64,000 nt of DNA from Tumebacillus amylolyticus (GTDB taxonomy: Bacteria > Bacillota > Bacilli > Tumebacillales > Tumebacillaceae). The notes under the pieces were generated by a model. It was not told the origin of the DNA. It searched no databases and was given only the letters and a program-made list of their open reading frames with translations. The stretch spans positions 489,541 to 553,540 of the forward strand of contig NZ_JAEQNB010000002.1 of the NCBI RefSeq assembly GCF_016722965.1, read 5' to 3'. Each line of letters starts with the position of its first letter. Position 1 is the stretch's first letter. This document shows, in pieces, positions 4,253 to 8,612 of this stretch. The position numbers and the translations under genes were made by a program.

Positions 4253-4295
4253 GCAACCACCTCGAAGGTTTCGATAAAGTCATTTTGATACATTC

Positions 4296-4325
4296 ATTAT
4301 AACCATATTACCAGAAAACGTGCAA
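4296..4325 (-). promoter_or_regulatory. Sigma-A-type promoter of the nrtR-pncA-pncB-nadE operon
   Basis: On minus strand: TTGCAC - 17 nt - TTATAAT, about 45 nt upstream of nrtR ATG. Confidence 0.55.
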
Positions 4326-4340
4326 CCCATTTTTCGGTAA

Positions 4341-4380
4341 AAAAAGATCCACCGTCGCAGGACGGTGGATCTGCTTTTTC
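4341..4380. terminator. Bidirectional rho-independent terminator
   Basis: GATCCACCGTC-GCAG-GACGGTGGATC perfect 11-bp stem flanked by A-run and T-run; ends the minus-strand HK-REC-PIN operon. Confidence 0.7.
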
Positions 4381-4453
4381 AATACGATTTGTAACGAGAA
4401 CCTGTGTAGTACTCGCGTTGGACATGCCTGAGATCCGTTTTCATTCAAACAGT

Positions 4454-5014
4454 TTAGGCCAGCAATGGATCATGAACCGGGATTTTCGCTTGCGATAAAG
4501 CTGCTTTTAAACCCTTGTCTGAGGTCACGACAGTAATCTCAGTCTCAGTGCGTTTCTTATATAGTATTGCTGTAGCTGCAATGAGAGCATCTTGAGAACC
4601 AAAATTGTATTTATCTGCGTAATCGATCAAAAAGTCCTTAGCAACAGAAATATGCTCACTATCAAGGGAAATAACCTTCGCACGAATTCCCCCAGAAGCA
4701 TTAAGACTATCCGAAACTAATTTTATCAAACTTTTAAACATTTTATTTTTTATTCCTTTTCGGCCTGGTGTAGACCACTCCTGCTCGCAATATCCACTAT
4801 TTATATTTCTTGTACAAAGTTGTACTTGTTGTTGTATGCCTCTTCTGTCTTTCCCTAAAACAGAGTAAATTTCCATAGCGGATATCTCAGATAAATAAAA
4901 TTCAACTACCCCTCCCTTCATTAGCAGGCTCTCTAACTTTGTTTTTTTATCTTGGGAACCCATACTAAAAAACAAATGGTACGCATTCGTATCTAAAAGA
5001 AATGATTTCACCAT
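4454..5014 (-). CDS. PIN-like domain protein (putative ribonuclease), last gene of HK-REC-PIN operon
   Basis: N-terminal LLDTNAY (Asp1), EISAMEI (Glu), SQDALIAATA (Asp3), VVTSDKG (Asp4) arranged as in PIN folds; RBS GAAGAGGAA; AT-rich codon usage. Confidence 0.55.
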   Translation of the reverse strand: MVKSFLLDTNAYHLFFSMGSQDKKTKLESLLMKGGVVEFYLSEISAMEIYSVLGKDRRGIQQQVQLCTRNINSGYCEQEWSTPGRKGIKNKMFKSLIKLVSDSLNASGGIRAKVISLDSEHISVAKDFLIDYADKYNFGSQDALIAATAILYKKRTETEITVVTSDKGLKAALSQAKIPVHDPLLA

Positions 5015-5017
5015 ACA

Positions 5018-5455
5018 TCATTCCTCTTCGATGTTGTTGTTAGAGTTTATATTATCGATTAAATCATGAGCTTCATCAAGAGAAAAAGGCTCAAGTTTAT
5101 CCTTGATTATTTTTACAGTTTTTCTTAAGTCAGCTCCAGCTCCTTTGTTAATATAGGCATCAACTCCTAGATTGATAAACTTACTCATCATCGTGTGATC
5201 GTTTATGTTGTTAGTGTAGACAACAACTACAACGTATGGGTCAATTTCACGAATTCTCTCTAAAACTACGTCACCTTTCAGTCCAGGAAGAATAATATCC
5301 AATACAACTAAGTCATAGGCTCCTTTTTTAAATTTATCAGCAGCCTCTTTCCCATTTTTCATCCATTCAACATCTATCTTCTCATCTTCAAGTGCTTTTT
5401 TTAAGAACTTACCCGTGATATCCTCATCTTCCACGATTAGCACTTTATCACTCAT
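5018..5455 (-). CDS. Stand-alone response regulator receiver domain (CheY-like, no output domain)
   Basis: MSDKVLIVEDEDI...DLVVLDIILPGLKGD...YTNN...K: REC domain acidic pocket, phospho-Asp (VVLD) and conserved Lys; 145 aa only; overlaps HK stop by 8 nt. Confidence 0.8.
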   Translation of the reverse strand: MSDKVLIVEDEDITGKFLKKALEDEKIDVEWMKNGKEAADKFKKGAYDLVVLDIILPGLKGDVVLERIREIDPYVVVVVYTNNINDHTMMSKFINLGVDAYINKGAGADLRKTVKIIKDKLEPFSLDEAHDLIDNINSNNNIEEE

Positions 5456-7193
5456 GTCTTATGGCCTCCTTTGGTAGTTCGATAATAAACATTGCTCCAT
5501 CTGTATAATCATAATCAAGGTAGATGGATCCACCTTGATATTTTAACAGATTCCAAATAATAAACAAACCCAACCCTTGACCCTGACCAGTTGGTTTTGT
5601 TGTGAAAAAAGGCTCAAATATTTTTCTTCTATTTTCAGGAGATATCCCCACCCCGTTATCTTGAAACAAAATACGTACCTTACTGCCTTCCTCTAAGACT
5701 CGAATCAGTATCTTTTTACTTTTCCGGCGAGAGATCTGCAATGAGTGGATAGAGTTGATCAATAGATTACTTATTATCTGATCAAACATTGCCGGATCTC
5801 CATACATACTCACGTCGTTAGGAAGAATATAGTCAACATTAATGTCATTAGTCATCAACCTAGTTTTTTCGGCATTCACCCTAGTTTTTATTCTATCCGA
5901 AGCACTATATTTGACGTTAGAATTTTTTGTTGTAGTAAGAGGAGAGAGCCTGTTCATTAAATTACCCATTCGCTCTGTTTCTAATAATATAGTTTGGAAT
6001 AAATCACGAATAGTGTCGCCATCAAGTTCCTCAACCTTTTTACCGAGATAATATTGTATCATAAATCGAACGTTCGTAATAGGTTGTCCTAATTCATGTG
6101 AAATCCCTTGAGTAAGATTGGCTAATGCCTCCAACCTTTTACTATTTTCTATCGCTGACCATACACTGGCCTCTGAATCATTTATCGCATCCTGTTTTTT
6201 GTTTTTGTTACTCTTTTTATATATTTTTTCCTGAAGTATGCTATCTACTCTTTTGACATCTTCCAAAGTACCGAATCTTAAATATAGATTCTTTAATGTT
6301 CGTAGAATAGATATACTATCTGTATAGCTCTCAATTTTCTGCAATGCATTTTTCTTTGCAATTGCATTGTTTGTTTTGTCATAGTAGTAGACTAACTCAT
6401 AGAGAATATTAAAGTCATTCCTTCTTTCGATTGAACTATCAGTTAATAATATTTTGTTAACCATTTCGTAATTGTCCATCTTCCTGCATAACCTAAATAA
6501 CGATCTAATCGTTACAGAATCCTGATCAACGTTAATTAATTCACTAGCTATTTTGATAGCCTTGTAATACAATTCCAGTCGTTCGTATACAGTTACACAG
6601 TATTTATCAATCCGAATGGTTAAGTTTGTTCTTTTTCGATTAAGAATCATAATGTCCAATATTGTTACAAGTTCTCTTTGTCTGGTTTGTTCAAATTCCT
6701 TAATACAATCAACCACGTATTGGAAATTATTATCGCTATCAAGAAGGTTAATTAATTTTTTTCCCGATTCTGATAAAAAAGATCCCAATGGAAATTCAGA
6801 TGACATTAATTTTGCAGTTTGGTAAGCAATCTGGATATCTTTATTATATATTCTGTTCAATAATTTATTTTTGAACTCTTTCATCATTTCTTCAGGAAAA
6901 CTAAATAGATTTTTATCAACACTTCTTGCGAAAGCTCTAAATGTTTTTTGTTCGTCAATTACATAGTTGTATGCCTCTAAATAAAAATTTACGGATCTTT
7001 CAAAACATCCAATATTAAGGTGTAATTCAGCCAACAAGATAGTGTATTGGAATTTAAAATCGGTAAAGATTTCTTTTCGTTTCTTTTCAATACACAAATC
7101 TATTGCTTCTTGAAATCTTTCAGATTTCATCAAATCCTCTACTCTTAGTATATTCTCTTCAAATTCAATAAATGCGTTCTTAGCCATTCCCAC
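5448..7193 (-). CDS. Cytoplasmic sensor histidine kinase with ~340-aa unrecognised helical N-terminal domain
   Basis: C-terminal HisKA (ISHELGQPITNV) plus HATPase_c N, G1, G2 boxes (NLLINSIHS, DNGVGI, GQGLGL); no hydrophobic TM segments; RBS GGGTGGG. Confidence 0.8.
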   Translation of the reverse strand: MGMAKNAFIEFEENILRVEDLMKSERFQEAIDLCIEKKRKEIFTDFKFQYTILLAELHLNIGCFERSVNFYLEAYNYVIDEQKTFRAFARSVDKNLFSFPEEMMKEFKNKLLNRIYNKDIQIAYQTAKLMSSEFPLGSFLSESGKKLINLLDSDNNFQYVVDCIKEFEQTRQRELVTILDIMILNRKRTNLTIRIDKYCVTVYERLELYYKAIKIASELINVDQDSVTIRSLFRLCRKMDNYEMVNKILLTDSSIERRNDFNILYELVYYYDKTNNAIAKKNALQKIESYTDSISILRTLKNLYLRFGTLEDVKRVDSILQEKIYKKSNKNKKQDAINDSEASVWSAIENSKRLEALANLTQGISHELGQPITNVRFMIQYYLGKKVEELDGDTIRDLFQTILLETERMGNLMNRLSPLTTTKNSNVKYSASDRIKTRVNAEKTRLMTNDINVDYILPNDVSMYGDPAMFDQIISNLLINSIHSLQISRRKSKKILIRVLEEGSKVRILFQDNGVGISPENRRKIFEPFFTTKPTGQGQGLGLFIIWNLLKYQGGSIYLDYDYTDGAMFIIELPKEAIRHE

Positions 7194-7199
7194 CCTTAA

Positions 7200-8480
7200 G
7201 TCCCCCTCATTCTTATGAAACTTAGTTGTTAGAACGAAAAAATACTTCTTATATTATATTCTACCTGCCAATTGTAATCTATAAGTTAGGAAAAAAACTA
7301 TGTATATGCTCCATATGTTAATGACATAATGCGAGTCTGCAAGGCTACAGGGGCTCTCGTTTCGGGCTCTGGTACAAAAGTTGTGATGATGCACTCTAGG
7401 CAGAATAGATGTTTATTGACTGGAAAATTACATATACAGCAGAATACGGTTACTGAGCCTCTGAAACGACGGAATTCCATACCCGATACGTATTTTGTAC
7501 CTTCTATGTAGCTGTTTGTCTAATAATACAGGAAATACGCCAAAATTACAGAGCTCGATGCTGTTGGCGAGAGTCTTGTACTCCAGGATGTCTGAAAACA
7601 GCATTTTATTTGAAAGGAATTTTCAAAAATGTATTACCGGTTTTTTAATCCCTTGTATTGATATCTATCAGCATCGTAGTCGTTCATTAACTCATACGTT
7701 CGTCTTTATGCAGAAAGGCTTCTACACATTCCAATTGTCAGTTAGTGAGTGATTCTTGTTGCGTAGAAGGTGCGATCGAGCCCTCTAACATTGCGATATC
7801 GTTGAGGCACTACGCCTTTTCGAACTCGAAGCATGACTTGGTCTACAGTCCAACAATTGGCATAACACACGACTTGAAACTGGTCTACGATATGCATGGC
7901 ATGGGGTATGTAGGTGTGGAAGGCATACCGTTTCGCATCCCACATAAATAAAAACGATATTGATAGTGAAATGGTCTTGCAATTTCATAAAGAAGTCACG
8001 TATTGTCCCCTTTGATCGACCTCCTAAAATCTCCTGCTTACAGCACTCTTAATAATCCGTGATTACAGTATGGTATTGAGGTCGCCGCGAAACGGCAACC
8101 TCGATGACCTCCGGCGGTACTCCTTCATGAAGCTTTTCAATTCTGGCGGTAGCGAGCCGATGAAATTGACGGTCTAATCTTAGACGAGTCTAGCCGATCT
8201 TACCAACAGCCTAAGAGATGGAACTGGGTACAGAAAAGATTAAAGGTCCACTCGGCCATTCGCTGCCTAAAGCGACAGTTACACGCCCCACTGGATGCTT
8301 TTTGGAGAACAGTAAACTATAACAAGTGTAACGTAATCACCTCTTCTCGCAAATAAATAGACTCGTCGGTTTCAAACTGGGTTGATCATTGATCTATTGT
8401 TTACGCCGGACATGCAACGATACGCTAGAACACCACAATCAAGTATTATCCTAATGGACTGGTTTTGCATATAAAACGCC
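7200..8480. other. AT-rich ORF-poor stretch (~1.3 kb) upstream of the HK operon; candidate degraded mobile DNA or structured RNA
   Basis: No ORF >100 codons on either strand, all short ORFs lack RBS or homology; composition clearly differs from flanking GC-rich genes. Confidence 0.35.
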
Positions 8481-8565
8481 CCTCTCGTTGATGTTAGTCA
8501 CAAAAAAATTCGACAAACGCGTTGCTTGTTCCTTTTATTTACAGTTCACCTCAAGTCTCATTCTA

Positions 8566-8612
8566 AAGTCTAAAAAAGGCCGCAGGGCATCGCCCGCGAC
8601 CTTTTTTTCTAC
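8566..8612. terminator. Bidirectional rho-independent terminator downstream of udg
   Basis: A-run, GGCCGCAGGGC / GCCCGCGACC imperfect stem, T7 run. Confidence 0.55.

Follow-up and report, generated by a model that had tools for sequence, protein, structure and literature searches.

The 64,000-nucleotide stretch of Tumebacillus amylolyticus DNA analysed here (RefSeq assembly GCF_016722965.1, contig NZ_JAEQNB010000002.1, positions 489,541 to 553,540; hereafter the window) carries three minus-strand open reading frames (ORFs), which encode, in this order, a histidine kinase (HK), a stand-alone receiver protein (REC) and a PIN-domain protein (PIN). The three genes lie where an earlier note, made from the letters of the sequence, had placed them. 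Their coordinates, and those of the features around them, are collected in Table 1.

Table 1. Features of the HK–REC–PIN locus and its surroundings (window positions)
Feature	Position	Strand	Properties and basis
Histidine kinase (HK), cytoplasmic sensor	5448..7193	-	581 amino acids (aa); GTG start; ORF and Pfam
N-terminal TPR-like alpha-solenoid sensor domain of HK	6204..7193	-	aa 1–330, about 18 helices; AlphaFold2
Kinase core of HK	5472..6191	-	DHp helices aa 335–420; CA/ATP-binding domain aa 427–574
REC, stand-alone receiver protein	5018..5455	-	145 aa; conserved C-terminal extension of about 35 residues
PIN, predicted VapC-like PIN-domain nuclease	4454..5014	-	186 aa; beta-hairpin insert at about aa 59–88
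HK leader	7194..7260	-	Ribosome-binding site GAGGGGGA at 7203–7210 and TATAAT hexamer; read from the sequence
Bidirectional intrinsic terminator	4345..4372	.	Perfect 12-bp stem with 7 G-C pairs; terminator scan, inverted repeat I2 and sequence
AT-rich island, horizontally acquired, nrtR to udg	4253..8608	.	About 4.4 kb, GC 0.365; composition profile, flanks by Pfam
Candidate decayed ISL3-family transposase fragment (tentative)	7745..7984	-	80-codon stop-free stretch; DDE_Tnp_ISL3 E 7.7e-4, below gathering score

The junctions between the genes were checked base by base. The stop of the HK gene and the start of the REC gene overlap by 8 nucleotides (ATGAGTGA), and 3 nucleotides separate the REC stop from the PIN start, both as the earlier note had described; REC and PIN are each preceded by a ribosome-binding site of their own. 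The tight spacing is consistent with translational coupling along the series, and translation of PIN is probably coupled to that of REC. For HK, the NCBI record begins two codons downstream of the GTG, and an alternative ATG is present at 7187. From the TATAAT hexamer in the HK leader we infer a promoter; the consensus promoter scan returned no minus-strand site upstream of HK. The operon is closed by the intrinsic terminator, which lies 82 nucleotides past the PIN stop codon.

In HK, Pfam assigned HisKA to residues 357–416 and HATPase_c to residues 465–576. The highest Kyte–Doolittle mean over 19 residues was just 0.99, for which reason the protein is regarded as soluble, and the absence of transmembrane helices read earlier from the sequence was thereby borne out. 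The AlphaFold2 model (predicted local distance difference test score, pLDDT, 85) comprises about 18 helices over residues 1–327 (pLDDT >90), followed by two long DHp helices and an alpha/beta CA domain. The predicted phospho-accepting histidine, H366 (codon 6096–6098), is at least 90% conserved in alignment A3, in which S365 and E367 are invariant, as are the N box (N476, N480), the G1 box (D512, G514, G516), the F box and the G2 box (G538, G540, G542). The H box reads S-H-E-L-G-Q-P and holds an invariant glutamine at residue 370 (H+4; window positions 6084–6086). In HisKA kinases the H+4 residue is usually threonine or asparagine, and this position is tied to phosphatase activity; with Gln370, the phosphatase activity of HK on phosphorylated REC (REC~P) may be altered or absent.

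The region in front of the kinase core had been described as a helical, TPR-like N-terminus of about 340 residues that could not be assigned. Its helical and TPR-like character was upheld, and a partial assignment can now be given. In the sensor-domain profile, positions 18–86 match consensus TPR at E 2.5e-16, which covers the first two repeats, and Pfam TPR matches were obtained in many HK homologs. A search of 1.84 billion representatives with a hidden Markov model (HMM) of the sensor domain retrieved 61 cluster representatives at E ≤ 1e-30, all of which are kinases of about 575–616 residues, fragments, or members of a short-sensor subfamily of about 460–480 residues; at weaker E values, giant generic TPR proteins were matched by the first two repeats only. 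Judged by these matches, the full sensor domain of about 330 residues is specific to this kinase family. Its invariant residues include R234, R237, Y242, F261, Y265, E266, Y269, Y270, T299 and Y304, and residues 91–190 are the most variable.

About 12 representatives of 460–480 residues were recovered in the exhaustive HMM search, which suggests that the short-sensor kinases form a subfamily in their own right, whose sensor spans about 200 residues. A variant of this kind (473 residues) is encoded together with REC and PIN in loci L061 (6063–14335) and L062, where the trio is inserted between two BatA/VWA genes of a BatA–BatD (TPR/VWA) operon and adjoins a NERD/FHA protein.

In REC, Response_reg (residues 5–109, E 4.6e-21) is the sole Pfam domain, in agreement with its earlier description as a bare receiver lacking a DNA-binding output; a classical response-regulator output domain, whether DNA-binding or enzymatic, is not contained in its 145 residues. 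Among 51 homologs, E9/D10, D53, T81, Y101 and K104 are conserved, D53 (codon 5297–5299) being the phospho-acceptor, and REC accordingly looks phosphorylatable, with a CheY-type switch. In the same set, the C-terminal extension displays an L121-x-P123 motif followed by an acidic tail. The classical two-component residues are thus present in both proteins, as the H, N, G1, F and G2 boxes in HK and as D-D-T-K in REC.

For PIN, Pfam returned PF01850 at E 5e-7, and PIN_12 over residues 7–168 below its cutoff; no sequence-level match to solved structures was obtained, any solved VapC included (E 0.7). The AlphaFold2 model reached a pLDDT of 94.8, and Foldseek against the PDB gave probability 1.0 to PcrIIC1, Nmd4 and many VapC toxins, so that the nuclease fold proposed for the third protein was recovered. 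Four acidic residues, noted before for their PIN RNase-like spacing, form the quartet D8, E48, D142 and D166 and are invariant in 40 diverse homologs. The same alignment revealed an SVLGKxRRG motif after E48, with S51, V52, G54, K55 and R58 invariant, as well as an invariant Cys67 and a nearly invariant Cys76 in the beta-hairpin insert. The PIN homologs listed are 164–219 residues long each.

All three proteins were further scanned against collections of named families. NCBIfam gave generic kinase and response-regulator matches only, far under the cutoffs. The PADLOC scan gave nothing meaningful: the best match of PIN was at E 0.016, and the resemblance of REC to PDC-M60B/C and SduA was only that of receivers in general.

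Linkage and distribution of the cassette

Gene-neighbourhood look-ups with PIN homologs of 37–61% identity showed HK, REC and PIN with unchanged order and all on one strand in nine of nine cases. A locus scan with one genome per GTDB species then provided 49 loci. In every locus with upstream DNA, PIN is immediately preceded by REC, and REC in turn by a kinase that bears the same sensor domain; the exceptions to this linkage are loci at contig ends or visibly decayed copies. The association of the three genes, which the earlier note had seen at a single locus, proved essentially invariant among homologs. The compact layout also recurs, with an HK/REC overlap in 34 of 45 loci and a REC–PIN gap of ≤13 nucleotides in 31 of 45.

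The loci were found in Paenibacillus (Paenibacillus assamensis DSM 18201 being among the carriers), many Lachnospiraceae, Oscillibacter, Desulfobacterota, Anaerolineales, Dehalococcoidia, Thiobacillus, Pararobbsia, Pseudomonas capsici, Methylobacter, Nitrospina, Magnetobacterium, Bacteroidota and Rikenella. Members of the family are frequent in Lachnospiraceae of the gut as well as in environmental bacteria from several phyla, and the module comprises at least 60 clusters at 50% identity, from at least eight phyla. The flanks are unshared: 443 ORFs located within 6 kb of the trio fell into 414 clusters, and only six locus pairs have flanks in common. In 40 of 40 loci, the trio is richer in AT than these flanks; the difference averages 11 points and reaches 23 points in high-GC hosts. 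Because the linkage is strict, the flanks are unshared and the AT shift occurs throughout, HK–REC–PIN is an autonomous three-gene cassette that spreads by horizontal transfer.

Decayed copies were of two kinds. In L031 (7821–9576) and L051 (3915–5677), the kinase gene is split by a frameshift, with REC and PIN intact; in L054, L055 and L059, the kinase is truncated and PIN is split, with REC intact. The pattern of decay in these five loci might tell which losses are tolerated.

In the surroundings of the trio, a GAP1-N1/DO-GTPase1/DO-GTPase2/GASH/GAAD block, which is a conflict system built around GTPases, was observed directly downstream on the metagenomic contig L010 (8510–14567). One trio adjoins a serine recombinase and TrwB, and another adjoins transposases.

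Comparison with known systems

Among known systems, Detocs comes closest. It consists of a kinase with TPRs (DtcA), a REC on its own (DtcB) and an N-terminal REC fused to PNP or another effector (DtcC); its defence requires phosphotransfer, and DtcB was proposed to serve as a phosphate buffer (Rousset et al. 2023, 10.1101/2023.01.24.525353). Both systems are three-gene operons with a soluble TPR histidine kinase, a stand-alone receiver and an effector in third position (cell-killing in Detocs, predicted here), and both are sporadic across phyla. HK matches DtcA in its architecture of TPR-like solenoid, HisKA and HATPase_c, and REC, like DtcB, is stand-alone with an intact Asp53; these are likenesses of domain layout. 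The differences concern mainly the effector. DtcC carries a receiver at its own N-terminus, whereas PIN does not and gave no Response_reg match, and the effector is a PIN RNase here and a PNP, REase, TOPRIM or hydrolase in Detocs. The kinase of the trio is also shorter, with its histidine at position 366 as compared to His645 in DtcA of V. alginolyticus. Because its effector lacks a REC, the trio is not filed under Detocs. It may work in a similar way, but with the lone REC passing on the signal, a role that must fall to it as the effector has no receiver, and not serving as a buffer.

With VapBC systems, the trio shares a PIN protein of VapC-like fold with four conserved acidic residues (Foldseek probability 1.0), a partner gene directly upstream that is apparently translationally coupled, and a mobile, AT-shifted cassette. 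It differs in that the upstream partner is a phospho-receiver with a conserved C-terminal tail and not an AbrB, RHH, Phd, YefM or HTH antitoxin, in that the sensor kinase gene is an obligatory third component, and in that PIN has a beta-hairpin insert with two conserved cysteines as well as the SVLGKxRRG motif.

Single-domain response regulators are known to signal by partner binding, as in the pairs CheY–FliM and CpdR–ClpXP and in DivK. REC resembles CheY, CpdR and DivK in being bare with intact D, T, Y and K switch residues, and a phosphorylation-dependent protein contact is, because of these features, its expected output. What sets it apart from these regulators is the presumed partner, which would be a nuclease from the same operon.

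In the literature searched, no HK–REC–PIN module, REC–PIN pair or REC-type antitoxin was found, and no PADLOC model covers HK–REC–PIN. The DefensePredictor paper contains PIN defence proteins and a predicted TPR/HATPase/REC system (Fig. 6F), the latter not described with PIN. The trio is thus real, conserved and apparently undescribed, and is best regarded as a cross between two-component immunity of the Detocs type and VapC toxin systems, with a putative function.

Proposed mechanism and alternative explanations

The reading preferred here, to which a probability of roughly 55% is given, is that of a self-contained mobile module in which a His–Asp phosphorelay controls a PIN RNase toxin. Through its TPR-like solenoid, the soluble HK would detect a protein or peptide cue inside the cell, most plausibly one that stems from phage infection or from another invasion or stress event; it would then autophosphorylate on His366 and pass the phosphate to Asp53 of REC. 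Since REC has no output domain, it must work by protein–protein contact, and PIN is taken to be its partner, as nothing else is conserved at the loci and PIN is encoded 3 nucleotides downstream. Phosphorylation would act via the T81/Y101 switch, perhaps also via the C-terminal tail, and would alter the binding between REC and PIN, whereupon the nuclease would be released or activated. PIN would cut tRNA, rRNA or mRNA in the manner of VapC toxins, which would lead to a growth arrest resembling abortive infection.

As to the direction of control, phosphorylation would likely turn the toxin on, and the unphosphorylated state would be harmless, since L031 and L051 keep REC and PIN beside a frameshifted kinase and since Detocs defence needs phosphotransfer; this direction is suggested as the weakest inference of the mechanism. 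A phage-related trigger is plausible by analogy with the TPR sensors in Detocs, and the high conservation of half of the sensor would also be compatible with a conserved cue that comes from the host.

The unusual combination of a phosphorelay with a PIN protein had led the earlier note to propose a kinase-gated toxin or abortive-infection RNase. The architecture was confirmed, and the proposed function is retained as a conjecture that draws on the Detocs analogy, on the pattern of horizontal transfer and on the defence or mobile context of some loci, not of most. A defence role for the trio is plausible, but genomic context supports it only moderately.

Put more specifically, and more tentatively, the free-standing receiver might be a phosphorylation-switched antitoxin or activator that acts on the VapC-like PIN RNase by direct contact, which would make this trio the first example of an immune or toxin module that is widespread. 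If true, a phosphorelay that gates a toxin of the toxin–antitoxin type by contact would represent a logic apart from Detocs and from classical VapBC, and a toxin would come under the post-translational control of two-component signalling by way of a stand-alone receiver. Two-component systems and VapC/PIN, the two largest regulatory and toxin families in bacteria, would be joined in one minimal cassette, and Detocs, the only known two-component defence system, would be extended to a different wiring. The cassette would likewise offer a compact, portable three-protein switch of sensor, phospho-relay and RNase, with one predicted key residue in each (H366, D53 and D8).

Several findings weigh against the preferred reading. 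Most trio loci are situated among housekeeping genes; PADLOC and Pfam scans of 124 neighbours returned scattered defence genes from few proteins and, in Pfam, mostly housekeeping functions, and an enrichment of the trio in defence islands is not established. No PIN homologs were found in IMG/VR, among PLSDB plasmids or among GenBank phages. Within the sensor, residues 211–300 are as conserved as the catalytic domain, a pattern more in keeping with a conserved ligand than with a phage protein that evolves fast. The loci with kinase frameshifts, furthermore, lie in metagenome-assembled genomes, in which assembly errors are possible.

The first alternative is a phosphorylation-modulated addiction (toxin–antitoxin) module that has no part in immunity. 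REC, in the position of VapB, would bind and neutralise PIN, HK would merely tune the pair, and the cassette would persist mainly by stabilising itself or its mobile element. Much of the comparison with VapBC can be read in this way: the small partner gene lies directly upstream of PIN with a gap of 3 nucleotides, the fold of PIN is nearest to VapC toxins, and REC has its conserved C-terminal extension where VapB carries the toxin-binding tail. The broken PIN beside an intact REC in L054, L055 and L059 and the patchy, AT-shifted distribution, mostly outside defence islands, point in the same direction. REC, however, has no DNA-binding domain for autoregulation, and it is hard to explain by addiction why a sensor kinase of about 580 residues is kept in essentially every intact locus; moreover, no plasmid copies were found, although addiction modules are common on plasmids. 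On balance, this explanation is unlikely.

Somewhat less probable still is a physiological two-component pathway, in which HK would respond to a signal of metabolism or stress in the cytoplasm and REC~P would recruit or tune the PIN RNase on specific transcripts or tRNAs, with no role in conflict. Such a pathway would agree with the strong conservation of the C-terminal half of the sensor, with the mostly housekeeping neighbours and with the general knowledge that single-domain receivers such as CheY and CpdR commonly act via partner proteins. It would, however, lead one to expect a conserved flanking gene or regulon, which is present in no lineage, and it is at odds with the AT shift in all 40 loci, with the sporadic spread across phyla and with the existence of pseudogenised copies. 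Unshared flanks, AT shift, sporadic spread and pseudogenes are all typical of accessory conflict genes rather than of core physiology.

Quite improbable is, finally, a true Detocs subtype, in which HK and REC would be orthologous to DtcA and DtcB, respectively, and only the receiver once fused to the effector would have been lost. The first two genes do have the same architecture and order (TPR-kinase, then stand-alone REC), Detocs effectors are swapped among PNP, REase, TOPRIM and hydrolase, and the weak best PADLOC matches of REC, PDC-M60B/C, are REC-containing candidate defence proteins. Yet the defining REC–effector fusion (DtcC) is missing, PIN being a single fold of 186 residues, and a lone REC that served only as a phosphate buffer, as proposed for DtcB, would leave no signal carrier to the effector. 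The sensor profile, too, retrieved no longer DtcA-like kinases and only family members of about 460–616 residues, and the accessible part of the Detocs detection table (Table S5, 10.1101/2023.01.24.525353) contains neither a PIN effector nor any record of Tumebacillus or of Paenibacillus assamensis, including the trio carrier DSM 18201. A chance co-location of a PIN gene with two-component genes was rejected, as the same trio recurs with invariant linkage in more than 45 independent loci.

The AT-rich island and its ORF-poor segment

In the T. amylolyticus window, the composition profile gave a GC content of 0.29–0.39 over the three genes and of 0.35–0.49 over the next 1.4 kb, as compared to 0.55–0.60 in the flanks, which were identified by Pfam as the nadE–pncB–pncA–nrtR operon on one side and udg on the other. 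The AT shift of the block relative to the nrtR operon and udg, remarked on before, was therefore reproduced. Rfam and tRNA scans of the window found none, so that no tRNA integration site is present, and neither direct nor inverted repeats at the island edges were convincing.

The ORF-poor 1.4 kb beside the genes (7194–8608) had been called free of ORFs. This holds insofar as its longest stop-free run is ≤95 codons, and is to be qualified by the possible remnant of an ISL3 transposase inside it, for which the evidence is weak (Table 1). A tblastn search with this candidate against plasmids gave no match and left it unconfirmed; at the DNA level, the ORF-poor segment had no match among plasmids either. 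Its length is about that of an ISL3 transposase gene, so that the segment could represent a degenerate insertion sequence brought in together with the island.

At the opposite end, the terminator hairpin, bordered by an A-run and a T-run, separates the PIN gene from the nrtR promoter region. As judged by its high GC content, it is more likely to be part of the host backbone than of the island.

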